This document shows, piece after piece, positions 9,561-27,390 of a DNA stretch of 30,070 bases (position 1 is the stretch's first letter; every line of letters starts with the position of its first letter). The position numbers and the translations under genes were made by a program. Origin of the DNA: Promethearchaeota archaeon (GTDB lineage: Archaea > Asgardarchaeota > Lokiarchaeia > Sigyniarchaeales > SOKP01); the NCBI GenBank assembly GCA_048938445.1, contig JBHLME010000051.1, positions 1 to 30,070 of the forward strand, in the 5' to 3' direction. The notes beneath the pieces were generated by a model. It ran no database searches. It saw only the letters and a list, made by a program, of their open reading frames with translations, and was not told the origin of the DNA.

Positions 9561-9971
9561 TTAAAATCCATCCCAGAATTTTTTAATTGGATCTTCTAAT
9601 TGATCTCCAATTTGATCCTCAAATTTCTGAAATATAGAGACATCATTATCCCATTGTTCAAAAAAACCTTCTGGAAATCGTTCAGTAAATTTATCAGCTA
9701 CTTTTTCTAATTCGGGAATAATTTTTTTCTCCTTATGTTTTTTATCACTATTCGAGACAAAAAATAAACCTTGTTTTTTTAATAAATTGAAGCGTTTATT
9801 ACTTAATTCAAAACTGGATAATCCTCCTTCTACAATGGTTTCTGCGAAGGTATTCAAAGCAGACATGAGCCCACCAAATAATTGATCACTTAAATGGGTA
9901 TCAAAAGTCCTATGATACAACACGACCCCCGTGTCCATTAAAATCCATAGATCTTGTATGACTTTTGCCAA
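9561..9971 (-). CDS. Stand-alone longin-like domain protein
   Basis: beta-beta-alpha-beta-beta-beta-alpha-alpha pattern: IQDLWILMDTGVVLYHR / DQLFGGLMSALNTFA / LSSFELSNKRFNLLKKQGLFFVSNS / LEKVADKFTERF...W.NDVSIFQKF, typical of Asgard longin-like proteins. Confidence 0.75.
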   Translation of the reverse strand: MAKVIQDLWILMDTGVVLYHRTFDTHLSDQLFGGLMSALNTFAETIVEGGLSSFELSNKRFNLLKKQGLFFVSNSDKKHKEKKIIPELEKVADKFTERFPEGFFEQWDNDVSIFQKFEDQIGDQLEDPIKKFWDGF

Positions 9972-10144: not shown

Positions 10145-10819
10145 TTAAAATAGACCTAAAGCATAAGCTAGAATGCTGAATTTTGCGATAAATATAAGGA
10201 TAAATACAAATATCCAAGTTAATGAGTAACCAATGAATTTGCCGATATATTTTTTCTCTTTAGGATCTATAGAAAAAGCTAGTATGTGTGGAGCTGTTGC
10301 TACAATAAATACTTGAGTGTAAACGATAGGTGCTGAAATGTTGTAAAATGTCATAAATTCAGAAGCTCCAGGTTGTATTCCTATTGCAAAATAAGCAGAA
10401 ATTACGAACATCTCTAAAAAAAGTAATAATACCATTGTAAAAATTATCGAAAATATTCTAATTATTTTTGTCCCTATAAAATTTCCTGATCTTTGCAATG
10501 CACTTTCTTTACTGTTGTCTTTGGACGCTAAGAACATAATAAATCTGACCAATTCATACCCGTCAATATTCAATTTCAAGAATGCTACAATAAAAATGGA
10601 AATGTAGAGAAATCGAAGAGGAGAATTTATTAATACAGAATAGAATATAGGGAATTCTAAGTATGGTACGATTGCCAACAACATCGATATTATTATGATA
10701 TTAGAACTAACTGATATTCCGAAAACAATGAAATACATTATTTTAAATGCCAATAAATTCGCTTTTGTTTCTATTATTTTCGTTTCTTTCAATGTTCTTT
10801 CTTCACTTTGACTTATCAT
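10145..10819 (-). CDS. Uncharacterised 5-TM membrane protein, paralog 1 of 3
   Basis: Five hydrophobic segments; shares YELVRF..FL, R..G.FIG.KIIRIF and QVF..A.APH...FS with the two neighbouring ORFs. Confidence 0.85.
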   Translation of the reverse strand: MISQSEERTLKETKIIETKANLLAFKIMYFIVFGISVSSNIIIISMLLAIVPYLEFPIFYSVLINSPLRFLYISIFIVAFLKLNIDGYELVRFIMFLASKDNSKESALQRSGNFIGTKIIRIFSIIFTMVLLLFLEMFVISAYFAIGIQPGASEFMTFYNISAPIVYTQVFIVATAPHILAFSIDPKEKKYIGKFIGYSLTWIFVFILIFIAKFSILAYALGLF

Positions 10820-10966
10820 CCTAAACCACTCATTATTATTTTTGATTTGTTTTGATTTCTTTAATTTTTTTAATTTAAACTTCGTTAATGGATAAGTTTT
10901 CGGGATTTAAATGCAATTTCTTATTGAAAACTTTAAATAAAAAAAATTAAAATGTATATATAAAAT

Positions 10967-10987
10967 AATATGGACTGATTTTTTACA
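10967..10987 (-). promoter_or_regulatory. Shared promoter element copy 1 (TGTAAAAAATCAGTCCATATT), directly upstream of a TATA box
   Basis: The + strand reads aatatggactgattttttaca; followed on the minus strand by ATTTTATATA; about 148 nt from the start at 10819. Confidence 0.75.
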
Positions 10988-11167
10988 AAAAAAGCAAATT
11001 ATAAAAAAACTCGTTCAGACATGACTTTATACCCTTTTTTATTAACTTATAACATCTTATATAATCTCTTAAGGTTATAACATAACAAAGATTTTTTAAC
11101 TTAATCCTGGAAATACTTGTACAAAATAAACTTTCTTAATTTAGTCTTAATCAAAAATTTAAATTCT

Positions 11168-11181
11168 AAAAAAAAAAAAAA
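11168..11181 (-). terminator. Oligo-T archaeal terminator
   Basis: 14-nt A run on + (T14 on -) immediately after the stop codon of 11182..11859. Confidence 0.6.
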
Positions 11182-11859
11182 TTAAAATACTTTAAAATAG
11201 AACATAAAAATACCATATTTGAAAGTCAATATTAGTATTAATATAGATATCCAAGTTAATGAATAAGCAATGAATTTACCCATATATTTATTATTCCTAG
11301 GTTCAATTGAAAATTTTAGTATGTGTGGAGCTGTCGCTGTAATAAATACTTGAATGTAGACGAAAGGTACGAAAATGAGGTAAAATGGTATAAATCCAAC
11401 CGCTTCAGGCATAAATTCTATTGTTAGGTACGTGTATACTACACTAAACTCCAAAGCGATTAATAATATCATCGTAAAAACAATAGAAAAGATTCTAATT
11501 ATTTTTGATCCAATAAAATCTCCTGATCTTTGCAATGCACTTTCTTTACTATTATCTTTAGATGCTAAGAATATTATATATCTCACTAATTCATACCCAT
11601 CAACTATCAGTTTTAAAAATGCTACAATAAGAATGTCAATGTATAGAAATCGTAAAGGAGAATCTATTAATAGATAATATAAACCAGGATATTCCAAAAA
11701 TGGCACGATTTCCAATAATCCAAATATTATTACGATATTAGAACTTAATGTTAATGCGAAAATTATGAAATTTATAATTTTAAATGCTAATAAATTTGCT
11801 TTTTTTTCTGTTAATTCCAGTGCTCGTTCTTCACTTCTTTCTTCAGTTTGACTTATCAT
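11182..11859 (-). CDS. Uncharacterised 5-TM membrane protein, paralog 2 of 3
   Basis: Highly similar to 10145..10819, e.g. identical FLASKDNSKESALQRSG. Confidence 0.85.
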   Translation of the reverse strand: MISQTEERSEERALELTEKKANLLAFKIINFIIFALTLSSNIVIIFGLLEIVPFLEYPGLYYLLIDSPLRFLYIDILIVAFLKLIVDGYELVRYIIFLASKDNSKESALQRSGDFIGSKIIRIFSIVFTMILLIALEFSVVYTYLTIEFMPEAVGFIPFYLIFVPFVYIQVFITATAPHILKFSIEPRNNKYMGKFIAYSLTWISILILILTFKYGIFMFYFKVF

Positions 11860-12004
11860 TCTAAACCACTAATTTTTTTTTGATTTGTTTTGATTTCATT
11901 AATTTTTTTAAATTCAATTTCGTTAATGGATAAGTTTTCTGGATTTAAATGCAAATTCATATTGAAAACTTTATATAAAAAAATATTAAATGCATATTTA
12001 AAAT

Positions 12005-12025
12005 AATATGGACGGATTTTTTACA
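12005..12025 (-). promoter_or_regulatory. Shared promoter element copy 2 (TGTAAAAAATCCGTCCATATT)
   Basis: The + strand reads aatatggacggattttttaca; followed on the minus strand by ATTTTAAATA. Confidence 0.75.
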
Positions 12026-12055
12026 AAAAATTTGATTTTAATGAAAGCAATATAT

Positions 12056-12727
12056 TTAATACACTATAAACCATCTTAGATCAAAGAAATTTATGAAAAG
12101 GAGTACAGCTATCCAAATATTTGAATAAACTATTATTTTAGTTATATATTGTCTTTTCTTATAATCTAAAGAAAAGGACATTAAATGTGGTGCTATAGCT
12201 TGAGTAAATACTTGAACACAGATAACCGGAGCAAATATCATATAAAATAACATAAATTCTGGAATCCCAAAATCTGAAGCTTCTGGTGGTCGAGGTCCTG
12301 ATAAAAATGCATCTGCTACTATTATACAAATTTTCATTACAATTATTAAAATAACCATAAAAACGAGGTAAAAAATTCTAATAATTTTAGTCCCTATAAA
12401 ACCCTTAGCTCTATGAATCGCACCCTCTGCATCCTTAATATTAGTTTTTAAGAATAACATAAATCTTACTAATTCATAAATGCTAACATTCATATTTATG
12501 AATGTTATTGTAATAATTATAATATATAGAGTCAGAGTATAATCAAAAAATATCCAGCGGAAAAGAGGGTAATCTAATTTTGGTGCAATCGTGAAAAATA
12601 TTGAGAGTATTATGATATTAAGGCTAAATGTTATTATAAAAATACAAAAATATAAGATCTGGAGCGCATTGAAATTTACTTTAATTTTTCGTTCTTTGAT
12701 CGTCTTTTTTTCCTGTTGACTTAACAT
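12056..12727 (-). CDS. Uncharacterised 5-TM membrane protein, paralog 3 of 3 (most divergent)
   Basis: Keeps YELVRFMLFL, HRAKGFIGTKIIRIF and QVFTQAIAPHLMSFS; has a Pro-rich loop insertion GPRPPEASDFG. Confidence 0.85.
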   Translation of the reverse strand: MLSQQEKKTIKERKIKVNFNALQILYFCIFIITFSLNIIILSIFFTIAPKLDYPLFRWIFFDYTLTLYIIIITITFINMNVSIYELVRFMLFLKTNIKDAEGAIHRAKGFIGTKIIRIFYLVFMVILIIVMKICIIVADAFLSGPRPPEASDFGIPEFMLFYMIFAPVICVQVFTQAIAPHLMSFSLDYKKRQYITKIIVYSNIWIAVLLFINFFDLRWFIVY

Positions 12728-13068: not shown

Positions 13069-14481
13069 TCAATCATTGATAATATAAGGATCACATTTCC
13101 ACAGATCATTTAAATATCCCCAATCTCCATACTCGGGACACCCATAACCCCCAAAAAGCCAGAGATTATCATCGGAATCCGTCCAAGAAATGGCACTTTC
13201 TCTGCCCCCAGGATGAGTTTCCGTGTTTGGAATACCTTTCATACCATAGATGCCATATACTCCATTTGTTTTTTTTCCTGACATCCATGTCCAATTCACA
13301 CCATCATATTTCCATAAGTCGCTTAAATGTCCCCAACATCTTTGATCCAAAGATTGCCAACCTCCAAAAAGCCAGAGGTTATCATCCGAATCCGTCCAGG
13401 AAATGGAGTTTTTTCTGCATCCGGGAAAATTTGCTATATTTGGAATCCCCTTCGTACCATGAACGCCGCTTACACCACATGATTTGCTTCCCGACATCCA
13501 CGTCCAGTTCACACCGTCATATTTCCATAAATCATTTAAATATCCCCAGTCTCCATATTCGGGACACCCATAACCCCCAAAAAGCCAGAGATTATCATCG
13601 GAATCCGTCCAAGAAACAGCATTTTCTCTACCCCCGGGATAATTTAAAGAGTCTGGCACACCTCTCGTGCCATATACACCATTTACATCAGTAATTTTAC
13701 TTCCCGACATCCACGTCCAGTTCACGCCGTCATATCTCCAAAGGTCATTTAACCATAGAGAATGTCCATATTCCGGACGCCCATTACCTCCAAAAAGCCA
13801 GAGATTATCATCGGAATCCGTCCAAGAAATGGCATATTCTCTACCCCCGGGACAATTCAAAGAATTTGGCACACCTCTCGTTCCATATACGCCACTTACA
13901 CCACATAATGTGCTTCCTGACATCCACGTCCAGTTCACGCCGTCATATCTCCATAAATCATTTAAAAAATCTACAGTATACCGCTCTGAACGTCCTCCAA
14001 AAAGCCAGAGATTATCATCGGAATCCGTCCAAGAAACGGCACCTTCTCTACCCCCGGGACAATTTGAAGAGTCTGACACACCTTTCGATCCATATACACC
14101 ATTTACATCTGCAATTTTACTTCCCGACATCCACGTCCAGTTCACGCCGTCATATTTCCATAAATCATTTAAATATCCCTGTTCTCCCGTTTCTGGATAC
14201 CCATAACCTCCAAAGAGCCAGAGATTATCATTAGAATCTGTCCAAGAAACGGCACCCTTTCTACTCCCAGGATAATTATTTGCGCTTGGAACACCTTTCA
14301 AACCATACACACCATTTAGATTAACTGTATTACTTCCCGAAATCCACATCCATTCAATGTAGGAATAATCATTAGGAAAAAAAGTAGAAACGTAGAAAGA
14401 TCCTAAGATTCCAAGAGATGTTCCACCCATGATCAAACCGATAAAAATTGCTATATACTTTTTTCCACTTCCATTTACCAT
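13069..14481 (-). CDS. Membrane-anchored/secreted kelch-repeat beta-propeller protein (6 blades)
   Basis: N-terminal KK plus hydrophobic helix; six ~71-aa repeats W.WMSG...GVYG..G.P....PG.R..A.SWTDSDDNLWLFGG....L.DLW.YD with the kelch GG/Y/W signature. Confidence 0.9.
   Translation of the reverse strand: MVNGSGKKYIAIFIGLIMGGTSLGILGSFYVSTFFPNDYSYIEWMWISGSNTVNLNGVYGLKGVPSANNYPGSRKGAVSWTDSNDNLWLFGGYGYPETGEQGYLNDLWKYDGVNWTWMSGSKIADVNGVYGSKGVSDSSNCPGGREGAVSWTDSDDNLWLFGGRSERYTVDFLNDLWRYDGVNWTWMSGSTLCGVSGVYGTRGVPNSLNCPGGREYAISWTDSDDNLWLFGGNGRPEYGHSLWLNDLWRYDGVNWTWMSGSKITDVNGVYGTRGVPDSLNYPGGRENAVSWTDSDDNLWLFGGYGCPEYGDWGYLNDLWKYDGVNWTWMSGSKSCGVSGVHGTKGIPNIANFPGCRKNSISWTDSDDNLWLFGGWQSLDQRCWGHLSDLWKYDGVNWTWMSGKKTNGVYGIYGMKGIPNTETHPGGRESAISWTDSDDNLWLFGGYGCPEYGDWGYLNDLWKCDPYIIND
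13090..14350 (-). repeat. Intragenic tandem repeat, six units of 213 bp (one spacing of 207 bp)
   Basis: Anchor ccaaa(a/g)agccagag starts at 13151, 13364, 13577, 13790, 13997 and 14210. Confidence 0.92.
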
Positions 14482-14835: not shown

Positions 14836-15879
14836 ATGTATGATTTTTGTATTAAATGTGGTGAAAAAAAATTAGAGGATAATACTAATTATTGCTTGAA
14901 ATGTGGGAGCCCTCTTTTCCCCAAAAGTCAAAATAACAAATCTACTATTCTTTTACTAGAATCTGTTGATCAAGATGATCAACCTAACCAATTAGAGGAG
15001 TTAAATGGCAAAATTCATGATGTTTATGTTAAAAATAAAAAAAGAGTTTACATTGGTGCGGTTCTATTTTTAGTTGCATTAACCTTAGACCTTACTATAT
15101 TTAATAGAGCTATATCTTCAATTTCAGTTATTCCAATTGAACCAATAATGGTAATTGCGGTTATAATCATTTTAACAGGTCTTAGAAGAAAAGGGAAAGG
15201 AATAATGTTAAACTTAATTGGAGTAGTATTAGTTGTATTGACATCTTTAATAGTTATATTTTATAATGTGTCTCCTGAATTTGTCGAATTGAAGATAGAT
15301 ATAGGTTTTATATTAATAATTATATGGGTAATTGCCTTTCATTTGCCCGGAATGTGGATTTTAATGAATAAAGGTAAAAATAGATTTTTATTACTTATAC
15401 TTAGTCTTATATTTTGTACTATATTATCATCGATGCCGTTATTTCTATTCCTTCCAATTGAATGGTTGGATTTATCATTTTTTATAAGTGCTCTTCTATT
15501 AGGCTTTTGGATTTTACTTATTGTAATTCCAGGGTATTATCTTTTAAAGAAGAATGAAAAAAAAATTAAATGGATTCTTTGGTTAGATTTAATTGGTATA
15601 ATGATATATGTAGGAATGGTAATTTATATTCCTATAAAGTATAGCACCTCTACAATTTATACTCCTGGTTATATCCCCCCACCTTGGTTTGAACTTCCAG
15701 ATTTGAACTTTCGAGACTTTTTTTTCGATAATTTATGGAATAACATTCTAATTGGATTTGGTATAGGTTTTGCTATATTTTGTGGTGTTTTATTGTTAAT
15801 AGTTGGTATTGGTATAGCTTTTGAGGATCTAATAGACAATATTAAGACCTATAATAGGAAGAAATCTAAAAATAATTAA
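14836..15879 (+). CDS. Zinc-ribbon-containing polytopic membrane protein
   Basis: N-terminal CIKCG...NYCLKCG zinc ribbon, polar linker, then about 8 hydrophobic helices. Confidence 0.85.
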   Translation: MYDFCIKCGEKKLEDNTNYCLKCGSPLFPKSQNNKSTILLLESVDQDDQPNQLEELNGKIHDVYVKNKKRVYIGAVLFLVALTLDLTIFNRAISSISVIPIEPIMVIAVIIILTGLRRKGKGIMLNLIGVVLVVLTSLIVIFYNVSPEFVELKIDIGFILIIIWVIAFHLPGMWILMNKGKNRFLLLILSLIFCTILSSMPLFLFLPIEWLDLSFFISALLLGFWILLIVIPGYYLLKKNEKKIKWILWLDLIGIMIYVGMVIYIPIKYSTSTIYTPGYIPPPWFELPDLNFRDFFFDNLWNNILIGFGIGFAIFCGVLLLIVGIGIAFEDLIDNIKTYNRKKSKNN

Positions 15880-16050: not shown

Positions 16051-17358
16051 TTATTCAGGTGATTGTTCTTCTGCGTCTTCATCAAAATTTATTTCTTTTT
16101 CATCCTTTAATTCCTTGTATAACTCTAAAAAATCATCATGAGAACTCACGGGCGAGCGAATTAATTCAGCTTTAATCTGTTCCAAGTCCTCCTCGTTCTG
16201 AAAAATCTGATTATATTTATCATTAAGCTGTAAGGGAATTTTCGCATACTCCTTTGAGACCAAGAGAGGGTGGCGTTCAGTCGGGATGATTCTGTAAGGG
16301 AAATTCGAGAAATATTTGTCAATGAGTAAATAAGCAGGTTCATAACGTTTCTTGTCCTTACAAGAGGTCTTTAAAAGGTATTCAAATTGCTCTTCAAAAT
16401 CGATGGTAAAATTTTTGACACAATCTCGTAGAAGAATCGAAGATTTAGAGGTTGCTAAACCAACCGTGATGAATTTAGAATCATATACTATTAAAATACC
16501 TTCCTGCAAGTTGATATCTAATAGTCGCCCCACATGCATCACCTTCTCGCTCATTATTTGCACAGCATTTATGAATCCCGCGAAAATATTTTCACCTATT
16601 TCAGATTCGGACCAATCATGATCAAATAAGGGAAAACCATCATGATCCTTTACCACAATCCTGTGGACGATGAACGGAAGGATATAGAATAATTTGGGTT
16701 CCATTATGAAAATATAGATAAAAACAGACCATCCTATTATCAAAATTATATCAGAGAATATAACAAATGTAGGATGTAAATATATAAGAAATAAAAATAT
16801 CAAACTATTGGGTAAAATTAACAGTGTTGTAATAAGTAGAATCGATGCTTCTTTTTTATATAAGAATGGAGTGTTATTCCAAACTAAAATACTCCAATAT
16901 AATAGAAAAATAAATAATATTAATGTGTATATAACAACTAAAAAATCAAATATACCTATAGATGCAAATTTAGTATAACCAAAAATAGGAACACTAATTT
17001 GCTCTATCGAATCAGGTAAAAAAGCGAAAATTACGAAAATAGGACTAAATACGCATGTTATAATCAATTCAGTAGAATATATTGTCTCTTTTTTTGACAA
17101 GCTTATAAAAAGTATAAAAAATATTAAAAGAGGTATATAAAATAAAAAAGATAATTGACTAAGAAACACAATTAAAAATAAGTCCGCCAGACCTTCAAAG
17201 AGCCAAGTTAAAAACATAAATAAAAAAGTTAATTTAATTGCGATTAATGATTTAAATTTAATATCTCTGAGTTTCAAATGAAAAATAACTAATCCTAATA
17301 ACATTATGAATGCAGCACAAAAATTAATAATTATTTCAATAGACCAGTTTATTGCCAT
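16051..17358 (-). CDS. 7TM-longin fusion membrane protein, copy A
   Basis: Seven hydrophobic helices in the first ~220 aa, then a longin-like domain (HRIVVKDHDGFPLFDHDW...IFAGFINAVQIMS...LLDINLQEGILIVYDSKFITVGLAT...LRDCVKNFTIDFEEQF) and an acidic tail. GAGGT SD site overlaps the upstream stop. Confidence 0.8.
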   Translation of the reverse strand: MAINWSIEIIINFCAAFIMLLGLVIFHLKLRDIKFKSLIAIKLTFLFMFLTWLFEGLADLFLIVFLSQLSFLFYIPLLIFFILFISLSKKETIYSTELIITCVFSPIFVIFAFLPDSIEQISVPIFGYTKFASIGIFDFLVVIYTLILFIFLLYWSILVWNNTPFLYKKEASILLITTLLILPNSLIFLFLIYLHPTFVIFSDIILIIGWSVFIYIFIMEPKLFYILPFIVHRIVVKDHDGFPLFDHDWSESEIGENIFAGFINAVQIMSEKVMHVGRLLDINLQEGILIVYDSKFITVGLATSKSSILLRDCVKNFTIDFEEQFEYLLKTSCKDKKRYEPAYLLIDKYFSNFPYRIIPTERHPLLVSKEYAKIPLQLNDKYNQIFQNEEDLEQIKAELIRSPVSSHDDFLELYKELKDEKEINFDEDAEEQSPE

Positions 17359-17374
17359 TTTATTTACAATACCT

Positions 17375-18130
17375 CTACATTTCCATTGATATTAAATTAA
17401 CTTCCTGATTATTTTGCATATTATTTACAATATTAGTAATCACTTCACTTATTAAAGCCCTTTTATTCAATTTTATGGATAATCTCTTCTCACCTTCAGG
17501 TGAAGGGGATATTATTCCATATTTTGTTAATTTCTTTAAACGATAATAAACCTTTTCCCTTTCAAGATTCAATTCTTTGTATATAATTGCTCTATTTATC
17601 TCTTTTTTATCTAGTATTAATTTAACTATAGCCCTATTTAAACCATCACTTAAGATGAAATAAAGCATTCCTTCCTCATCGCTCACCTCAACGGGAAGAA
17701 AAATAGTATAATTATTTACTTTTACCTTTTTTACTAAATTGAATTTGATTAATTTTTCTAAGTGCCAAACTAAATGACCAACACCTATTTCATGATCTTT
17801 ATATCTCGCACACGTCTCTTTTAACGAGGAAAAATGGATTCCTATATTAGTCTTAATAATCCTGTAAATAAATTGTCGAAAGTTATTCTTTAAAATCGTC
17901 TCATTCGTGAATCTTGATCCATCTACTAATATTTTTCTATTTATTAGCATTTGAATAATAGTTTTAAGCCCACTACGAGGAATTTTTAATTTTTTCTTAG
18001 CTCTATTGTATAATAATTCGGTATTGATTAACCTGTGTTCTTTGGTGAGCTCTACCGCAACATCTATTACTTGTTGAACAGTTGGGTGGTCTAATCCTAA
18101 AGAAAGAGGATACTTTTTCTCTATACACAT
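17375..18130 (-). CDS. Multi-winged-helix (COG3398-like) transcription regulator, copy A
   Basis: RQFIYRIIKTNIGIHFSSL...GHLVWHLEKL and RAIVKLIL...EREKVYYRLKKL wHTH domains plus an N-terminal wH. Start moved to ATG 18130 (MCIEKKYPLSL), which gives 251 aa, the same length as the paralog. Confidence 0.85.
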   Translation of the reverse strand: MCIEKKYPLSLGLDHPTVQQVIDVAVELTKEHRLINTELLYNRAKKKLKIPRSGLKTIIQMLINRKILVDGSRFTNETILKNNFRQFIYRIIKTNIGIHFSSLKETCARYKDHEIGVGHLVWHLEKLIKFNLVKKVKVNNYTIFLPVEVSDEEGMLYFILSDGLNRAIVKLILDKKEINRAIIYKELNLEREKVYYRLKKLTKYGIISPSPEGEKRLSIKLNKRALISEVITNIVNNMQNNQEVNLISMEM

Positions 18131-18181
18131 TAGGCAATCATATATAATGGTGAGAATCGAATTGACATAAATGTAAATTGC

Positions 18182-18208
18182 ATATTGATATAAAATCGTT
18201 ATCAATAT
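18182..18208. promoter_or_regulatory. Inverted repeat ATATTGATA-N9-TATCAATAT overlapping a TATA-like box, candidate operator
   Basis: Perfect 9-bp arms; conserved at the equivalent position of the duplicated module (20400-20426). Confidence 0.55.
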
Positions 18209-18292
18209 TAATAAAGATTACTCATGATTAACTAATTGTTAGATATCAAATTTAATGATTATTTTAAAATATTAATAATTCAAATTTAGAGA

Positions 18293-19573
18293 TTATTCCG
18301 GTATTGATTCTTCGGTTTTTTCATCAAAATTTATTTCTTTTTCATTCTTCAGCTCATTATATAACTCTAAAAAATCATCATGAGAACTCAAGGGTGAGCG
18401 AAGCATTTCAGTTTTTATCTGTCCCAAATCTTCTTCGTTCTGAAAAATCTGATTATATTGATTATCAAGTTGTAAAGGAATTTTCCCATATTCACTTGAG
18501 ACCAACAGATTTTGATGTTTACTAGTTATGATTCCATAAGGGAAATTAGAGAAATGTTTATCAATAAGCAGATAAGCTCGTTCATACATTTTCTTTTCCC
18601 TGCAAGATGTCTTTAGAAGATATTCAAATTGTTCTTCAAAGTCCAGGGCAAAATTTTTAAGGCAATCTCTGAGGAGTTTCGAGGATTTAGAGACTGCAAG
18701 ACCAACTGTAATGTATTTTGAATAATATACAATTAAAAACCCTTCTTGTAATTTAATATCTAATAACCGACCGACATGCATTACCTCTTGGCTCATTATT
18801 TGAAGAGCAGATATGAATCCCGCGAAAATATTTTCTCCTATATTAGATTCCGACCAATCATGATCAAATAAAGGAAAGCCATCATTATCCTTTACTACAA
18901 TCCTGTGGACATTTAAAGGAAGAATATAAAACAATTTAGGTTCTATCATTAAGATTATTATCATAATAGCTTCAAAAAGAATAAATAGTATTTGTGATAA
19001 GTAGACAAGAACATGAATCCAAATTGCTAGAAAACTTATGAGATAAGCAATGGGGATCAGAATTAGTATACAGAGAAAAAATGTCAGTGCTTCTAGTTTG
19101 TATAAAAATGGAGAATTTCGCCAAATAATAGTACCTCCATAGACTATAAAAATTGCAAATATCGTATTCATTATATTATTGAATAAGCTTAATAATTCCA
19201 ATGAATTGGGTAAAAAGGATATTACAATATTCACAGGCATACATATGCATAATAGAATTAAAGGAATGGAATATGGTGATTCTTTTGTTGACAAGTTAAG
19301 ATAAATTACAAATAAGATAACCTTTGGTAAGACCAATAGAGATGATAAATGAGCAAGGAAATATGATAAGTCAGCAAGGAGGGAATTCATAAGTAAACCT
19401 GCTATACTTTCTAATAACCATCGTATGCTTACAAATAAAATACATAATTGAAAGAATTTTATAGATTTAAAATTAAAATTTTTAAGTCTTAAATAGAATA
19501 CAACCAATAATACAGATGTTATAATTGCATGAGTTAAATACACGATTACTTCAATAGACCAGTTTAATGTCAT
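18293..19573 (-). CDS. 7TM-longin fusion membrane protein, copy B
   Basis: Same architecture as 16051..17358; C-terminal longin half nearly identical, TM half divergent. Confidence 0.8.
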   Translation of the reverse strand: MTLNWSIEVIVYLTHAIITSVLLVVFYLRLKNFNFKSIKFFQLCILFVSIRWLLESIAGLLMNSLLADLSYFLAHLSSLLVLPKVILFVIYLNLSTKESPYSIPLILLCICMPVNIVISFLPNSLELLSLFNNIMNTIFAIFIVYGGTIIWRNSPFLYKLEALTFFLCILILIPIAYLISFLAIWIHVLVYLSQILFILFEAIMIIILMIEPKLFYILPLNVHRIVVKDNDGFPLFDHDWSESNIGENIFAGFISALQIMSQEVMHVGRLLDIKLQEGFLIVYYSKYITVGLAVSKSSKLLRDCLKNFALDFEEQFEYLLKTSCREKKMYERAYLLIDKHFSNFPYGIITSKHQNLLVSSEYGKIPLQLDNQYNQIFQNEEDLGQIKTEMLRSPLSSHDDFLELYNELKNEKEINFDEKTEESIPE

Positions 19574-19589
19574 TTTTATTTCTATACCT

Positions 19590-20345
19590 CTATATTTCCA
19601 TTGATATTAATTTAAGTTCCTGATTATCTTGTAAATCATTTAAAATATTAGTTATAACTTCATTTATTAAAGCTCTTTTACTCAATTTTATGAATAATCT
19701 TTTCTTATTTTCAGGTGAAGGGGATATTACTCCATATCCAATCAAATTCTTAATACGATAATAGATCTTTTCCCGTTCAATGCTTAATTCTTTGTATATG
19801 TCTGATCTTTTTATTTCTTTTCTTTCCAATATTAATTTCACTATAATTCTATTTAGATCATCACTCAAAATAAAATATAACATTCCTTCCTCATCGCTCA
19901 TTTCAACGGGAAGAAATATCGTAAAATTCTTCACTTTTAATTTTTTTACTAAATTGAATTTAATCAGCTTTTCTAAGTGCCAAACCAAATGACCAACGCC
20001 TATTTCACTATCTTTATATTTCGCACACGTCTCTTTTAAGGAGGAAAAATGGATTCCTTTATTGGTCTTGATTATACTATAAATAAATTTTCGAAACTTG
20101 TTTTTTAATATCGTCTCTCTCGTGAATTTTGAACCATCCACTAAAATTTTTCTGTTTATTAACATTTGAATAATAATTTTCAGCCCACTTCGAGGAATTT
20201 TTAGTTTCCTCTTAGCTCTATTATATAATAATTCGGTATTAATTAATTTATGCTCTTTTGTGAGCTCTACCGCAACATCTATTACTTGTTGAACGCTTGG
20301 GTGGTCTAATCCTAAAGAAAGAGGATACTTTTTTTCTTTATACAT
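19590..20345 (-). CDS. Multi-winged-helix (COG3398-like) transcription regulator, copy B
   Basis: Close paralog of 17375..18130; very basic. Confidence 0.85.
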   Translation of the reverse strand: MYKEKKYPLSLGLDHPSVQQVIDVAVELTKEHKLINTELLYNRAKRKLKIPRSGLKIIIQMLINRKILVDGSKFTRETILKNKFRKFIYSIIKTNKGIHFSSLKETCAKYKDSEIGVGHLVWHLEKLIKFNLVKKLKVKNFTIFLPVEMSDEEGMLYFILSDDLNRIIVKLILERKEIKRSDIYKELSIEREKIYYRIKNLIGYGVISPSPENKKRLFIKLSKRALINEVITNILNDLQDNQELKLISMEI

Positions 20346-20399
20346 TAGACAATCATTTAATATTATAATTAATACAAAATTGACATTAATGTAGATTTC

Positions 20400-20426
20400 C
20401 TATTGATATAAAATCAGTTTCAATAT
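20400..20426. promoter_or_regulatory. Second copy of the candidate operator (cTATTGATA-N9-TtTCAATAT)
   Basis: Homologous to 18182-18208, with the arms slightly degenerate. Confidence 0.5.
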
Positions 20427-20523
20427 TAATAAAGATTTCTCATAGATTGCTAATTATTTAATATCAAATTTGATTCATTTATTGCTTTATTTTATATATT
20501 AATTCTATTAAGTTTGATATGAT

Positions 20524-20778
20524 TCAACTATAATGTTCAATATCTATAATACCTAATAGAATAAAGAAGATAAATCCGCATCCAAAAGCTGCTCCTAGAT
20601 ACAACCAAAAATAGTCTCTAAAATTTTGGAAAAACAGATCATAAGGAAAAGGAGCAAAGTCTTGTCCCCAATTTCTAACAATCATCGAAACTGTAAAAGC
20701 AGGAATCACAAACAAAGCAATAATTGACACAATTAATCCTATAATTACGTAGGTAAGTACTCTATATTGTGGTTTCAT
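20524..20778 (-). CDS. Small 2-TM membrane protein
   Basis: Two hydrophobic helices; strong SD (GGGTGA) before the ATG; preceded by a copy of the shared promoter element. Confidence 0.8.
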   Translation of the reverse strand: MKPQYRVLTYVIIGLIVSIIALFVIPAFTVSMIVRNWGQDFAPFPYDLFFQNFRDYFWLYLGAAFGCGFIFFILLGIIDIEHYS

Positions 20779-21028: not shown

Positions 21029-23626
21029 TTAAGAAATTTTATGAAATTGTAATTCATCCTTTTTATTGGTATCAACTCGAACAATGTCATTTTCCATAAA
21101 TTCTCCTTCCAAAATTTTCAGAGATAGTGGATTTTGAATATAAGTTTGGATTGTTCTCTTTAATGGTCGTGCTCCGAAATTTGGATCAAATCCTTTTTCA
21201 CTTAGAAATTCTTTTGCTTTTTCAGTGAGTTGTAATTGAATTCCATGTTCAGATAAAATCTTATTTAAATTCCTTATTTGAATATCAACAATATCTTTGA
21301 TTTGCTCCTTTTCTAAGTATTTAAAAATTATGATATCATCAACGCGATTTATAAATTCTGGTCTAAAATACCCTCTTAAGGCATTTAAAACTAATTCTTT
21401 ATTTTTCACGAAATCTATCTTGCTTGAGTCTGATAAAAATTCAGAGCCAATATTACTCGTCATGATAATTATTGTATTTTTGAAATCAACGGTTCTTCCA
21501 TGACCATCAGTTAAACGTCCATCATCCATTATTTGTAATAAAATGTTAAATACCTCGGGATGAGCTTTTTCGATCTCATCAAATAGAATTACAGAGTATG
21601 GTCGTCTTCTCACTGCTTCTGTTAGATATCCTCCTTCATCATATCCTACGTATCCCGGAGGAGCTCCAATTAATCTTGCGACACTATGTCTTTCCATGAA
21701 TTCTGACATGTCTATGCGTACCATCGCATTTTCAGAATCAAATAAAAATTCTGCTAGAGCTTTGGCCGTTTCTGTCTTTCCAACTCCAGTTGGACCCATA
21801 AATATAAAAGAACCAATTGGTCTGTTAGGATCTTGAATTCCTGCTCTTGATCTTCTTATAGCATTAGAAACCAATTTCAAGGCAGAATCTTGTCCAATCA
21901 CTCTTTTTTGTAATCGATCCTCCATTTTTAGTAATTTTTCACGTTCACCTTCAAGCATTCTTGAGATTGGGACTCCTGTCCATTGTGAAACAATTTTTGC
22001 GATATCTTCTTCATCTACTTCTTGCTTTAGCATAGTCTTGTTCTTTTGAATTTCATTCAATTCAGAATTGTATTTTTCCAAATCTTTTCTTAATTGATTG
22101 AGAACACCATATGTCAATTCAGCAGCTTTCCCTAAATCACCTTGTCTTTCTGCTCGTTCCGCTTCAATTTTGGTTATTTCCATCTTTTTTTGAAGCTCAT
22201 TGATTTTAGAAATAATTTCTTTCTCATTATGCCATTGTGCTTTCATTGCATCGCTTTTTTCTTTAAGATTACGCAATTCTTCGTCAATTTTTTCTATTTT
22301 CTCTGCACAAGACTTATCATTTTCTTTTTTTAAAGCTTCTTTTTGAATTTGCAATTGTATGATTTTTCGTTCGATTTCATCGATTTCAGTAGGCATACTA
22401 TCAATTTCAATTCTTAATCGTGAAGCAGCTTCATCCATCAAGTCAATTGCTTTATCTGGTAAGAATCTATCTGTGATATAACGATGTGATAACGTAACCG
22501 CGGCAAGTATGGCTGCATCTGTTATTCTTACTCCATGATGAATTTCATATTTTTCTTTCAAACCTCTTAGAATAGCAACTGAATCCTCAACTAAAGGTTC
22601 TGATACATACACAGTTTGAAACCTTCTAGTTAAAGCGGCATCATTTTCAATATATTTACGATATTCATCTAAAGTAGTAGCACCCACACATCTCAATTCT
22701 CCTCGAGCTAATGCAGGTTTTAGCATGTTTGAGGCATCAATGGCACCTTGAGCGGCACCTGCACCTACTAAGGTATGTAATTCATCAATGAAAAGGATAT
22801 ATTTTCCTTCACCTTTTTCGACTTCTTTTAGAAAGGCTTTTAATCTATCTTCAAATTCTCCCCTATATTTCGCTCCAGCAATAAGGGCACCTAGATCTAA
22901 AGATAATATGTCCTTGTCTTTTAAAGAATCGGGAACATCATTACTTGCGATTCTCAATGCGAGCCCCTCAACAATGGCGGTCTTTCCAACACCAGCTTCA
23001 CCGATTAATACAGGATTGTTTTTTGTCCTTCTTGAAAGAATATGCATCAATCGTCTTATTTCATCATCTCTCCCTATAACAGGATCTAACTTTCCTCTTC
23101 TTGCTAAATCTGTCAAATTACGGCTGTATTTCTCAATAGCTTGGTATTTTCCTTCAGGATCTTGATCAGTTACTGTCTGATGCCCTCTAATACTCATTAA
23201 TGCTTGTAAGATCCTATCTTTGGTTATACCATATTTTTTAAATATTGAATTTATAGAAAGAGAGCTATTTGCACTCATTGCTATAAGTAAATGTTCAGTG
23301 CTTAGAAATTGATCTCGTAAATTCTCGGCTTCTTTCCATGCAGAATCAAAAAGAGTACTACTTTCTCTCGATAATACAACATCAGATGCTCCTGACCCAG
23401 TGACTTTAGGAATCTTTCCAATTTCATTAAAGACGTCACTTAATACTTGGCGTATATCGACACCTAATTTTTGTAATAGAGGTGACGTGATTCCCTCTTG
23501 TTGATCTATTAGTGCTATCAATACATGAAATGGTTCGATATGTTGTTGATTTCGTTCTTGAGCTAGTGCTCGTGCAGCCATTATGGCTTCTTGAACCTTA
23601 ATCGTGAATTTATCAAATTTCATCAT
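21029..23626 (-). CDS. clpB: ATP-dependent disaggregase ClpB
   Basis: Clp N-domain, [15 protein letters not shown], Walker A GEAGVGKT and GPTGVGKT, long coiled-coil M domain (ending [11 protein letters not shown]), [19 protein letters not shown]; no obvious IGF loop. Confidence 0.97.
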
Positions 23627-23639
23627 TATTATTTTTCTC

Positions 23640-24656
23640 CTATAAACCTGTTTTTTTTAGTTTTTCTAATAATTCTCTTTGTTCTTTGTTTAGTTTTTTG
23701 GGTATTTTAATTTTAATCTCTACCAAGTGGTTCCCTCTATTTTCTGAACCTGTCTTATAAAATCCTTGATTTTTTAATCTTAATAATGATCCATCTTTAG
23801 TACCAGCAGGAACTGTTACACTTAAAGTTTTCTCAATCCCTTTTACATCAACCTTTCCACCTAAAACTGCGGTTGTAAAGGGAATTTCTTTTTCAGTATA
23901 TATATCATCTCCTTCCAACTTAAAACTTGGATGAGATTTTATATTAACATTTATATATAAATCACCCGGAGGTCCACCATTCATACCAGGCATTCCCTTG
24001 CCTTTTAATCGTAATTTCTGCTGGTCTTTTATACCTCTTGGAATCTTTACTGTTAGAGTTGCTTGTTGTCCTGTAGTTGGATCTTTATATGATATTTTCC
24101 TCTGACCACCATTGAATGCATCCATAAAATCTATTTCCATGTCATATCTTAAATCTTCTCCTTCGATAGGACGGCTGCCAAAACCCCCGTTTTTTACCCT
24201 TGAACTTGTCCCTTGTTGTGTAAAAACATCAAATATATCTCCTAAATCATTAAAGAAATCAAATCCTCCAAATCCTCTATTTGATCTTGATTTTCCACCG
24301 TTTCCAAAAATTTCACTGAAGTCAAATCCTCCAGGTGATCCAGTAGTTGAATAATAATAGGTTGTTCCATCAGGACCTCTATGAACACGTCCGCCTCGAG
24401 GTATTCCACCACCCCATTGTTGATATGAATCGGGATCTCCTTCTACAACACCAAATTTATCGTACATCTCTCTTTTTTTATCATCGCTTAATATACTATA
24501 AGCCTCATTAATTTCTTTAAACTTTTCACCCGTTTTAGGCTCATCTGGATTCACATCTGGATGATATTTTCTTGCTAACTTGCGGAATGCTCTTTTGATT
24601 TCATCTTTACTTGCATTCTTATCCAAACCTAGTATCTCATAATAATCCTTTGCCAT
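23640..24656 (-). CDS. dnaJ: DnaJ-class co-chaperone, class B/CbpA-like (no Cys zinc finger)
   Basis: J domain with HPD, G/F-rich region with DIF, C-terminal domain with PGDLY; no CxxCxGxG repeats. Confidence 0.92.
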
Positions 24657-24677
24657 TATTTTTCACCTTTTTTTTAA

Positions 24678-24754
24678 TAGGCCTGGCAGGATTCGAACCC
24701 GCATTGGTAGGAGCTTAAATCGCAATATTTTAGTCCTTTACACACATCAAGCCT
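24678..24754 (-). tRNA. tRNA-like element / degenerate tRNA (TAA at the anticodon position, Leu-like, atypical)
   Basis: Acceptor AGGCTTG/CAGGCCT plus discriminator A; T-arm GCGGG-TTCGAAT-CCTGC; anticodon arm TGCGA-TTTAAGC-TCCTA with one C-C mismatch; weak D-arm, no U8, no long variable arm. Confidence 0.55.
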
Positions 24755-24761
24755 TTTATTT

Positions 24762-24783
24762 AAAAAAATAAAAAAAAAAAAAA
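24762..24783 (-). terminator. Oligo-T terminator after dnaK
   Basis: T14-A-T7 on the minus strand, starting a few nt after the dnaK stop. Confidence 0.55.
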
Positions 24784-24789
24784 TTTTAT

Positions 24790-26691
24790 TTATTCATAAT
24801 CAGCATCAACCACACTGTCTTGTCCACTGGCTCTCCTGAATTTTTCTTCTTCAATTTCATCCTGAGTTTTTCCTTGGTACGTATAAGCTCCTGGTGGCAC
24901 GTCACCCATTCCTCCAGGGGGCGCTCCTTGAAATCCTCCTTGTCCTGGTTGTTGTCCATACATTCTACTAGATACTCCATGTAAAGCATTTTGTAAGGCT
25001 TCAGTCGTGCTTTTGATTCTTGAAACATCTTCAGATTCCATTGCAGCTCTAAGATCGGAAATTTTACTCAAGATTCCATCCTTTAAATCACCGATTAGCG
25101 ATTCATTTTCTTTCATTAATTTTTCTGTCTGATAAATTAAAGCTTCACCATGGTTCTTAACTTCAGTTAATTCCCTGAATTTTTTATCTTCCTCAGCGTG
25201 TCGTTCAGCATCTCTTATCTTTTGGTTGATTTCATCTTCGGACATTTTTGTGGATGCCGTGATGGTAATTGATTGACTTTTCCCCGTTCCTTTATCCTTT
25301 GCTGAAACGTTAATGATTCCATTTTGGTCTATATCAAATGATACTTCGATCTGTGGCACCCCTCTAGGTGCTGGTGGAATTCCTGTCAAATGAAATTTGC
25401 CTAAGGAGATATTATCCATAGCTTTTGGCCGCTCGCCTTGTAAAACATTTATCTCTACAGCGGGTTGGTTATCAGCTGCGGTTGAGAAGATTTCCGTTTT
25501 TCTCGTAGGAATTGTCGTGTTTCGTTCTATCAACTTAGTAAAAACACCACCTAATGTTTCGACTCCTAAAGAGAGTGGAGTCACATCTAGTAAGAGTAAA
25601 TCTTCAACTTCACCAGTTAACACTCCTCCTTGAACTGCTGCGCCCATAGCAACACATTCCATTGGATCAATGCTTCGTTCAGGGGTTTTTCCAAGATATT
25701 CCTCAAATTTCTTTTGAACTACTGGCATTCTAGTTGGTCCACCGACTAAAATGACTTTATCTACATCACCCTTGTTAAGGCCGGCATCTTGAAGTGCTTT
25801 TTTAATAGGTGCATCTAATCTTTGAATAACAGGATCAATTAATTGCTCTAATTTTGCCCTTGTCAAGGTAAGATTCATATGTTTTGGCCCTGAATCCGTC
25901 GCAGTAATATATGGTAAATTAATATCAGTTGATAGAGATGTAGATAATTCTATTTTGGCTTTTTCAGCAGCTTCTCGAACTCTTTGCATTGCCATTGCAT
26001 CTTTACTCAAGTCTACACCTTCGGCTTTCTTAAACTCTAACACTAAATACTCCAAAAGAATTCTATCCATATCAGTTCCACCTAAGGCGGTATCACCTGC
26101 AGTCGAGATTACTTCGAAAACCTGGTTGTCCATTTCCATCAAGGTAACATCAAATGTACCCCCTCCAAGATCCAAAACTGCAATTCTTAAGGACACTCCT
26201 TTCTTGTCGAGGCCATAGGCGACCGCAGCGGCAGTAGGTTCGTTAATTAAACGTTTTACATTTAATCCCGCGATCCTCCCCGCATCTTTGGTCGCCTGGC
26301 GTTGATTATCATTGAAATATGCAGGTACGGTTATTATAGCATCAGTTACTTCCTCACCTAAATACGCACTTGCATCCTCTTTAATTTTTCTTAAGATCAT
26401 TGCTGATATTTCTTGTGGAGTATAATCCTTCCCATCAATGGTTACCTTGTAAGACGTTCCCATTTTTCGTTTTATTGCCTGAATGGTACGTTCTGGATTG
26501 GAAACTGCCTGTCGTCTTGCAGGTTCTCCAATTAATCTTTGTCCATCCTTAGTAAAAGCAACATATGAAGGAAATGCCTTGCCACCTAATGTGTTTCCTT
26601 CTGCACTTGGTATGATTGTTGGCTTGCCACCTATCAATACAGCAGCAGCTGAATTACTCGTTCCTAAATCGATTCCGATTATTTTTCCCAT
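24790..26691 (-). CDS. dnaK: Molecular chaperone DnaK (Hsp70)
   Basis: [61 protein letters not shown]-terminal VVDADYE; lacks the N-terminal insertion of Gram-negative/eukaryotic Hsp70. Confidence 0.99.
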
Positions 26692-26721
26692 ATTTTTTCA
26701 CTCCTTTTATTTAATTTTTAA

Positions 26722-27390
26722 TTAACTTTCAGATTTTGATTTTTTTGAAATTACGACCATTGCTGGTCTTAATACTTCATTGTTATATAAATAACCTTTA
26801 TTTAATTCTTCTACAATCGTATTCTCTGGGAGATCATCATTTATTCTAACTAATTTTACTTCATGCTTGTATGGATCGAAAATTTGTCCTTCAGTCTCCA
26901 TGGGAATTACCTTTTCTTCGGCAAGTACTTTTTCGAAATTTTTTATAAGTAAATTAAATCCTTTCTTTATTGAATCCCCATTTTCAATAGTTTCAATTAT
27001 TTTTTCAGCTCGTAGTAAATCATCATAGTGATTGATTAGTTTTATCAATATTTTTTCCAAAGCATATGTTGTATATTTTTGTTTCTCGCGATCTGAAATT
27101 TTTTTATAATTTTCAAGATCTGCTTTTGCCCGAACTAATGATTCAAAATATTTTTTATTTTGCTCCTCAAGTTCTTTTAGTTTTCTTCCATCTTCCTTTA
27201 GTCGTTCGATTTCTTCAATTAAAGTTTGATTTTGTGCCTTGATTTCTTTATATTCCGAGTAAAGCGCTTCTAATTTTTTAGCTTTTTCTAAAAGTAATTC
27301 ATATTTTTCTCTTGAAATAGTAATCTTTTCACGTGGATCTTCAAGATAGCGACGACCATTGAAAAAATTATCAAAAGCGTTTTGAAACAT
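26722..27390 (-). CDS. grpE: Nucleotide exchange factor GrpE
   Basis: LVRAKADLENYKK, FDPYKHE, KGYLYNNEVLRPAMVVI; directly upstream of dnaK. Confidence 0.95.
   Translation of the reverse strand: MFQNAFDNFFNGRRYLEDPREKITISREKYELLLEKAKKLEALYSEYKEIKAQNQTLIEEIERLKEDGRKLKELEEQNKKYFESLVRAKADLENYKKISDREKQKYTTYALEKILIKLINHYDDLLRAEKIIETIENGDSIKKGFNLLIKNFEKVLAEEKVIPMETEGQIFDPYKHEVKLVRINDDLPENTIVEELNKGYLYNNEVLRPAMVVISKKSKSES

Follow-up and report, generated by a model that had tools for sequence, protein, structure and literature searches.

Tandem winged-helix and seven-helix longin receptor gene pairs in a Lokiarchaeia genome: a candidate kinase-free receptor-regulator system

Organization of the locus

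The window analyzed here is a stretch of 30,070 nucleotides (nt) of DNA from a Promethearchaeota archaeon (positions 1 to 30,070 of the forward strand of contig JBHLME010000051.1, NCBI GenBank assembly GCA_048938445.1), which is placed in the lineage Asgardarchaeota; Lokiarchaeia; Sigyniarchaeales; SOKP01. It contains two tandem copies, A and B, of a two-gene unit (Table 1), in which a gene for a putative DNA-binding protein of the winged helix-turn-helix (wHTH) type is followed by a gene for a membrane protein consisting of a seven-transmembrane-helix (7TM) bundle, a cytoplasmic longin domain, and an acidic helical tail (7TM-longin). The source genome comprises 4.63 Mb in 256 contigs (96.5% complete, 8.2% contamination), and the relatives of the window proteins carry the source labels Promethearchaeota or Lokiarchaeota archaeon. 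The GC content of the four-gene region (0.25-0.31) is similar to that of its surroundings.

It had been proposed in a preliminary description, made from the DNA letters alone, that the two units stand in tandem with short junctions and a Shine-Dalgarno sequence overlapping the upstream stop codon, and that kinase, receiver, and cyclase domains are lacking. The coordinates and junction sequences agree with the former statement: both junctions read TAG-AGGTAT, so that the final base of the stop codon forms part of GAGGT. The latter was borne out by a Pfam scan, in which none of the four proteins gave a kinase, receiver, or cyclase domain (HisKA and HATPase_c being absent). For wHTH-B, the protein read from the TTG matches wHTH-A and the 251-aa homologues from residue 26 onward, and the ATG was taken as the start because the resulting protein then has the length of its homologues.

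The repeated unit has a period of 2215-2242 nt. It includes an upstream stretch of 97 nt, present as a direct repeat with 82% identity, so that each pair has its own putative promoter region. Here, TTTTATAT may be read as a TATA box and the palindrome of pair A (ACATTAATGT) or the near-palindrome of pair B (ACATTTATGT) as an operator. Within the explanation preferred below, each pair is taken to be an operon.

Table 1. Coordinates of the two gene pairs and their parts (positions in the window)
Feature	Coordinates	Strand	Remarks
wHTH-A	19590..20345	minus	251 aa; open reading frame (ORF) call; first gene of pair A
7TM-longin-A	18293..19573	minus	426 aa; family profile E 6.8e-158
7TM-longin-A domains	7TM 18944-19573; longin 18533-18943; acidic tail 18296-18532	minus	borders via alignment to copy B
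wHTH-B	17375..18130	minus	251 aa from ATG at 18130; open frame extends to TTG at 18205
7TM-longin-B	16051..17358	minus	435 aa; ORF call, AlphaFold2 models, fold searches, positive-inside count
7TM-longin-B domains	7TM 16702-17358; longin 16291-16701; acidic helical tail 16054-16290	minus
Pair A junction	19574..19589	minus	16 nt; GAGGT overlaps wHTH-A stop codon
Pair B junction	17359..17374	minus	16 nt; GAGGT overlaps wHTH-B stop codon
Pair A duplicated upstream (putative promoter) region	20378..20474	minus	contains TTTTATAT and 10-bp palindrome ACATTAATGT
Pair B duplicated upstream (putative promoter) region	18160..18256	minus	contains TTTTATAT stretch and near-palindrome ACATTTATGT

The seven-helix membrane half

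In the full-length AlphaFold2 (AF2) model, the membrane half was confident, showing seven helices with a predicted local distance difference test score (pLDDT) of ~90 and a β-hairpin between transmembrane helices (TM) 4 and 5; the cytoplasmic half had a pLDDT <50. Lysine and arginine are concentrated in the predicted inner loops (on average 9.14 in the predicted cytoplasmic loops versus 1.28 in the outer loops, 43 family members), which places the N terminus on the outer side and the longin domain in the cytoplasm. Within the membrane half, conservation is highest in the inner loops and in a strongly conserved linker of 8-10 residues after TM7. The inner-face TM5-TM6 turn (W..KTW.NAPFLIKKEA) and the post-TM7 linker (EPKLLYILPF) reach a conservation of 0.79-0.81, versus 0.47-0.50 for the outer loops.

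A VIA structure search with the full model returned human ACER3 as the best match (Z 15.2, root-mean-square deviation (rmsd) 3.4, 195 residues aligned), followed by bundles of class C G-protein-coupled receptors (GPCRs; Z ~14, rmsd 3.3-3.8, ~200-212 aligned), other GPCRs (Z 13-14), and adiponectin receptor 2 (Z 12.3). As helical bundles attain Z ~13 through their arrangement alone, the ACER3 and GPCR matches point to a shared fold class only. With Foldseek, the matches listed for the 7TM half (top ~50) were exclusively GPCRs (E 4e-3 to 5e-2), and the Atlas structure search returned bacterial HisKA_7TM clusters (TM-score 0.70-0.75). Pfam gave no HisKA_7TM or 7TMR-DISM_7TM match for the 7TM-longin proteins of the window; among 115 relatives, sub-threshold matches to 7TMR-DISM_7TM were found in five and to HisKA_7TM in one (best E 4.9e-4 and 2.6e-3). 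Taken with the seven-helix model and the positive-inside count, the structural matches uphold the 7TM receptor-like half with cytoplasmic longin that had been described before.

Relatives elsewhere join the same module to histidine-kinase domains. In four proteins of one genome, the 7TM part (profile positions 1-228) is followed by PAS-HisKA-HATPase_c(-REC), and five proteins combine 7TM-longin with HisKA-HATPase_c, the longin domain sitting where PAS, GAF, or HAMP usually stands. These domain architectures are the strongest line of evidence on the 7TM bundle: they show it to be a real input module of signaling proteins and thereby establish its sensor nature. The HisKA_7TM and 7TMR-DISM_7TM modules of bacterial histidine kinases, diguanylate cyclases, and HD phosphohydrolases likewise consist of an N-terminal seven-helix module followed by a cytoplasmic signaling part. 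The window proteins differ from them in passing no Pfam cut-off and in having a longin domain and acidic tail as cytoplasmic part instead of a kinase, cyclase, or HD domain. Like GPCRs, they have a seven-helix bundle with the N terminus predicted outside; their likeness to the class C transmembrane fold is at the fold level only and within the range given by bundle arrangement. They are not known to couple to a heterotrimeric G protein, although no search aimed at Gα was made.

The matches to ACER3 and adiponectin receptor 2 could also be taken to mean that the 7TM half is not a sensor but a membrane enzyme of the CREST/alkaline-ceramidase type, or a transporter, that is regulated by the longin domain. 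CREST hydrolases (ACER3, PAQR) carry a conserved His/Asp metal site within the bundle. Among the 43 members, however, the invariant and ≥90% conserved columns of residues 1-219 contain no His or Asp, which argues against the enzyme reading. Moreover, the ACER3 match lies within 1-2 Z units of many GPCR bundles, and the same 7TM part serves as the N-terminal module of histidine kinases. This alternative is thus regarded as highly improbable.

The cytoplasmic longin domain

Neither Pfam nor NCBIfam assigned a family to the two 7TM-longin proteins, and the isolated longin domain matched 0 Pfam families at cut-off; a profile search against the sequences of solved structures gave one match at E 2.1, which is not meaningful. 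A second AF2 model (residues 220-435), for which paralogues were added to the alignment, reached a pLDDT of ~90 in the longin core. The order of its elements is β1-β2-α1-β3-β4-β5-α2-α3 (strands (E) and helices (H) at E12-19, E24-29, H37-55, E60-65, E68-74, E78-84, H89-111, and H117-131). The model thus has the five-stranded sheet, the lack of an N-terminal helix, and the two C-terminal helices that define a longin.

The best VIA match of this domain was the VAMP7 longin (Z 13.3, rmsd 3.3, 122 residues aligned), and further matches included Sec22 (Z 12.8), a chain of the CPLANE complex (7q3d_C, Z 12.7), Mon1-Ccz1 (Z 11.6), AP-3 sigma, the SRX-type domains of the signal recognition particle (SRP) receptor, TRAPP, and a solved Lokiarchaeota longin (8yqg_B, Z 10.6). 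The 28 Foldseek matches at E <= 1e-3 comprise both longin and roadblock proteins, among them AP-2 sigma (1.4e-4), sedlin, and Sec22b. A Roadblock/LC7 identity, for which a helix before β1 and at most one C-terminal helix would be expected, was considered and rejected: Roadblock proteins cover only model residues 8-108 in the VIA alignments and omit the two C-terminal helices, β1 begins ~10 residues past TM7, two helices follow β5, and Robl_LC7 was matched at E 0.085 in one paralogue only. Judged from the model and the fold searches, the C-terminal domain is a longin, as had been proposed from the sequence, and the domain anatomy of the receptor is thereby established. The eukaryotic longins (VAMP7/Sec22/Ykt6, the small subunits of AP/COPI, TRAPP, Mon1-Ccz1, Fuzzy/CPLANE) and the solved Asgard longin/roadblock proteins resemble the window's domain in fold and element order (Z 10.6-13.3 over ~120 residues). 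Unlike in these proteins, the window's domain continues directly from the final helix of a 7TM receptor; it is identical to them in 6-17% of its residues and is not known to have a GTPase partner.

Sub-threshold matches to Fuz_longin_1 (PF19036) were found in four of 115 relatives (best E 9.6e-4) and in two stand-alone longins of the source genome. One of these two is the 136-aa ORF at 9561-9971 (-) in the window (E 5e-4, 20.7 versus 26.1 bits). In total, the source genome encodes ~25 ORFs of very different lengths that contain paralogues of the C-terminal domain (domain profile), and 44 longin-like ORFs, including the one at 9561-9971, were found with a broader profile. In four of its multidomain proteins (L017, L018, L024, and L030; 681-1487 aa), the longin-like domain is located at or near the C terminus, and the other parts include prenyltransferase-like, Ig-like, or TPR domains.

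Family forms and coupling to the winged-helix gene

The 7TM-longin family is large. In a profile search of 1.84 billion representatives, 834 clusters were matched at E <= 1e-3, 546 at <= 1e-10, and 246 at <= 1e-30, and 108 of 301 genomes of a phylum-wide sample contain a match (E <= 1e-10). Two forms can be distinguished: a short form of ~355-365 aa (7TM and longin), which is found in many families of the phylum, and a long form of ~430-440 aa, which additionally carries a conserved acidic helical tail and, among the genomes searched, is confined to the window's own taxonomic family (one to five copies per genome).

The coupling to the wHTH gene was assessed in 29 long-form loci from 29 other genomes, which are the best-scoring long forms, one per genome, and thus a sample biased toward good matches. 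The wHTH gene adjoins the receptor gene in all 29, directly upstream and on the same strand in 27; the two remaining loci have it on the downstream side, in the manner of a tandem array, and a contig end interrupts one of them. Of 60 short-form loci in other genomes, none has a wHTH family member within flanks of 2-3 kb. The wHTH partner therefore goes with the tail. The pairing is thus conserved for the long form, does not extend to the phylum-wide short form, and, among the genomes searched, is confined to the window's own taxonomic family. The source genome agrees with this picture, as its strong wHTH genes and its long-form genes number three each and stand side by side in pairs (the third pair is on contig C139), and the tail occurs in the three paired receptors only.

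Further loci point in the same direction, showing the tail on its own or the two proteins in one chain. In six of the 29 loci (L035, L040, L042, L043, L045, and L055), a stand-alone tail-like protein of 125-154 aa (E 1e-8 to 1e-12) is encoded immediately ahead of the wHTH gene, so that the unit there consists of three genes; by its occurrence in these sequences, the tail behaves as a separate domain. One other genome encodes a fusion of 676 aa (P0193, at L136 159-2186 (+)), in which a whole wHTH unit (E 1.6e-69) is appended to 7TM-longin-tail. Two proteins of the source genome (L022 and L033, ~250 aa) contain a longin-like domain and then a sub-threshold TrmB/HTH match. Longer fused forms (763-2175 aa) were not found, which is weak evidence. 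Membrane-tethered regulators of the ToxR/CadC type have the sensor and the DNA-binding domain in one polypeptide, whereas the window has separate genes, the 676-aa fusion being found elsewhere. A complex prediction of longin and tail (residues 225-435) with wHTH-B, computed with alignments, scored 0.01 (mark 0.32) and counts neither way.

The winged-helix partner protein

The wHTH protein is basic (pI 9.7-9.8) and the receptor tail is acidic (pI 4.4), in accordance with the complementary charges noted before. Pfam matches to the wHTH protein were all below the curated cut-offs and cover two regions: HVO_0163_N at residues 84-153 and TrmB/HTH_27 at residues 172-224 (in wHTH-A, HVO_0163_N at E 2e-5 and TrmB at E 3e-4). 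The triple winged helix that had been described is thus recovered in two of its parts and not in the third, which would lie in the N-terminal region; an internal profile comparison of the three segments was uninformative (probabilities <3%), and three winged helices are considered plausible. The Atlas neighbors of the protein are archaeal clusters of the ArsR/HVO_0163 type, with two-domain relatives matching residues 71-243, and the paralogue L091 (family profile E 6e-29) passes the cut-offs of HTH_24, HVO_0163_N, HTH_11, MarR, and HTH_5. The upstream regions of the wHTH genes in 31 loci are heterogeneous by eye and gave no evident shared operator, although no motif search was made.

In ESCRT-II, tandem winged helices act as protein-protein modules. 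By this precedent, the wHTH protein could be an adaptor in the style of ESCRT-II/PCI proteins that forms a membrane-bound complex with the longin-tail receptor for trafficking or remodeling. Such a role would fit the Asgard proteins that combine longin, HTH/PCI, and ESCRT-related domains, as described in passages of PMC11188069, and the position of the window proteins below all Pfam DNA-binding cut-offs. On the other hand, all signals in the wHTH family lead to the ArsR/TrmB/MarR/HVO_0163 DNA-binding families and none to ESCRT-II, L091 passes its five wHTH cut-offs, and a pI of 9.7 suits nucleic-acid binding. An adaptor function is thus quite unlikely.

Duplication and divergence of the two copies

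7TM-longin-A and 7TM-longin-B align over their full length with 56% identity (E 2e-169); between wHTH-A and wHTH-B, identity is 82% (E 9e-154). The divergence between the copies is distributed unevenly. The 7TM halves share 36.5% of their residues, with 23 gap columns (ratio of nonsynonymous to synonymous substitutions (dN/dS) 0.58, dS 0.94), versus 83% for the longin domains (dN/dS 0.09, dS 1.05), 72% for the tails (dN/dS 0.25), and 82% for the wHTH proteins (dN/dS 0.17); the lower dS of tail (0.63) and wHTH (0.55) is based on few sites. Copy A has a 16-residue deletion in the outer TM4-TM5 hairpin and a 7-residue insertion after TM2. The strong difference of the 7TM halves, indels included, is therefore as it was initially described, and the cytoplasmic halves turned out to be less alike than the near-identity ascribed to them.

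Gene conversion of the conserved 3' half was considered as a cause and is disfavored by the dS values. Since dS is alike in the longin and 7TM parts (1.05 versus 0.94), the contrast between them is attributed to constraint. Column conservation over the 43 family members differs in the same direction (0.53 for 7TM versus 0.79 for longin). The contrast behind the notion of diversified sensing with conserved output is thus a family-wide difference in rate and not special to the duplicate. As read from these alignments, the sensor half is free to vary, with constraint acting on the cytoplasmic half.

In trees of species representatives, copy A groups with copy B as its sister (support 100), and it does so too after addition of the closest metagenome proteins (support 87). 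The terminal branch of copy A (0.56-0.59) is ~2.3 times longer than that of copy B (0.24-0.26), and A is the faster-evolving copy. A genome of the same genus has one copy, and the A/B duplication appears to be lineage-specific; a separate tandem pair of sister copies exists in another genus, so tandem duplication recurs.

A possible kinase-free receptor-regulator pair

The explanation that we favor, tentatively and at a shade under an even chance, is that each pair forms a kinase-free receptor-regulator system. Here, the second gene would encode a membrane receptor, consisting of a 7TM sensor of prokaryotic type, the linker, the cytoplasmic longin domain, and the acidic helical tail, and the first gene a basic multi-winged-helix, putative DNA-binding protein of the archaeal HVO_0163/ArsR/TrmB type. 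The 7TM bundle would sense a stimulus at or in the membrane, and the conserved inner face and linker would relay the signal, upon which the longin-tail module would change its state and bind or release the cognate wHTH protein at the membrane. Binding or release would then set the amount of free regulator that acts on DNA, including the pair's own duplicated promoter region. What the data show is the domain anatomy, the topology, the sensor nature of the 7TM module, the strict co-occurrence of tail and wHTH gene, and the tandem duplication with its uneven divergence; the fusions of receptor or longin parts to wHTH parts, the complementary charges, and the conserved inner face and linker also speak for this reading. 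The contact between receptor and wHTH protein, the binding of DNA by the latter, and the direction of control are what we infer beyond these observations.

Similar principles are known from other regulators. Mlc is a transcription factor that is sequestered by a membrane protein, PtsG, and BlaR1-BlaI is an operon of a sensor and a winged-helix repressor. In such systems, the activity of a soluble DNA-binding regulator depends on a membrane protein, with no phosphotransfer to the regulator, and sensor and wHTH regulator can be encoded together; the proteins are unrelated to those of the window, where the mechanism would be analogous and where Pfam finds no BlaR1-like protease domain. Two-component systems, in turn, are built from HisKA/HATPase_c and receiver domains, which are absent from the four window proteins and present only in fused relatives elsewhere.

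Several points weigh against a receptor that holds and releases a DNA-binding regulator. The wHTH proteins of the window score below the DNA-binding cut-offs (HVO_0163_N 25-27 bits versus a cut-off of 31; TrmB 19-21 versus 25.6), and their N-terminal ~80 residues have no family match. The 676-aa fusion is a single sequence in which a receptor is joined to a downstream wHTH protein, and it has thus possibly arisen by loss of a stop codon in a tandem array. In the two-component relatives, the longin domain is located between sensor and kinase and may thus relay the signal within the protein instead of docking a partner. Finally, five of the 12 distant wHTH paralogues in the source genome directly follow genes of large surface proteins. 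Paralogues of this kind (L084-L088 and L091; contigs C80, C206, C8, C168, and C127) have 221-235 aa and are encoded 3-36 nt behind genes for proteins of 677-1879 aa (beta-helix/NosD, CBM, lectin-like, beta-propeller), and regulators of the wHTH family may therefore merely control adjoining envelope genes.

This last observation leads to the main alternative, in which the wHTH protein is only a local transcription factor that sets the expression of the operon, and the 7TM-longin protein signals elsewhere, most plausibly through a small GTPase that docks to its longin domain in the manner of the eukaryotic longin platforms acting as guanine nucleotide exchange factors (GEFs) or GTPase-activating proteins. 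Besides the distant paralogues, which behave like ordinary local regulators, the palindrome in the duplicated upstream region speaks for it, as do the best structural matches of the longin domain, which are GTPase-platform longins (7q3d_C of CPLANE, Mon1-Ccz1, TRAPP, AP sigma). Furthermore, a Ras/Arf-like GTPase gene lies 27-47 nt away, in convergent orientation, in nine of the 60 short-form loci and is kept within two separate genera. These nine loci represent only two independent lineages, however, and convergent genes are not co-transcribed; with 81 small-GTPase-like ORFs in the genome, chance adjacency is not negligible, and neither pair in the window has a GTPase gene beside it. The alternative also leaves unexplained why the tail occurs exclusively next to the wHTH family. 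It is accordingly considered possible but doubtful. The short-form loci with an adjoining GTPase gene are L066-L068 and L097-L099 as well as L082, L120, and L126; tandem 7TM-longin pairs occur in one genus, and a wHTH-TPR protein of ~640 aa is also encoded near L066-L068 and L097-L099.

A more far-reaching and unlikely proposal is that 7TM-longin proteins are archaeal receptor-GEFs, in which a GPCR-like bundle would read a signal from outside and switch the fused longin platform, which in turn would load a small Ras/Arf-type GTPase or unload it. Receptor-G-protein signaling would then have a counterpart in prokaryotes, which might even be its forerunner, and the long form would be a derived branch in which the GTPase was replaced by a directly bound winged-helix regulator captured by the new acidic tail.

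Relation to published work and significance

An expansion of longin domains has been reported for Loki-type archaea, with 41 predicted in one genome (PMC10933270); the word 'transmembrane' is absent from that paper. Fusions of Asgard longin domains to two-component signaling domains were described by Liu et al. (bioRxiv 10.1101/2020.10.19.343400). These likewise place a longin in prokaryotic-style signaling, but the passages concerned contain neither a 7TM-longin receptor nor a wHTH partner, and the form found in the window has no kinase. Another preprint (bioRxiv 10.64898/2026.10.28.762692) mentions '7TM proteins' of Asgard archaea as well as a structural cluster named 'class C GPCR', and the 7TM-longin family may be among its clusters. 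In the literature searched, no 7TM-longin receptor or wHTH pairing was described, although the supplements of the bioRxiv preprints, which were outside the search, may list the family. The finding is thus a new arrangement of known modules.

Longins belong to the eukaryote-like protein complement of Asgard archaea. Here, one of them gets a defined place, joined to a seven-helix sensor in a family of hundreds of clusters found across the phylum. One branch of the 7TM-longin family is strictly coupled to a putative DNA-binding partner and others to histidine kinases, which provides a concrete system for asking whether an archaeal longin docks a regulator, relays a signal internally, or serves as a platform for GTPases. 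Should the wHTH protein indeed be held and released by the receptor, the pairs would constitute a compact route from membrane to DNA without phosphotransfer; if 7TM-longin proteins act on small GTPases, this would bear on the origin of receptor-G-protein signaling.

Neighboring genes in the window

A chaperone cluster encoding ClpB, DnaJ, DnaK, and GrpE (21029-27390 (-)) lies directly upstream of pair A, with a hydrophobic ORF of 84 aa (20524-20778) between the two. Convergent with the 7TM-longin-B gene is an ORF of 347 aa (14836-15879 (+)) with a sub-threshold N-terminal zinc-ribbon followed by ~8 hydrophobic segments. Further along, a 470-aa Kelch-repeat protein with an N-terminal hydrophobic segment is encoded at 13069-14481 (-), where the local GC content is 0.415 versus 0.24-0.32 around it. 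Three tandem paralogous ORFs at 10145-12727 (-) encode hydrophobic proteins of 223-225 aa with no Pfam family (63% and 43% identity to the first); this trio sits just downstream of the stand-alone longin-like ORF.

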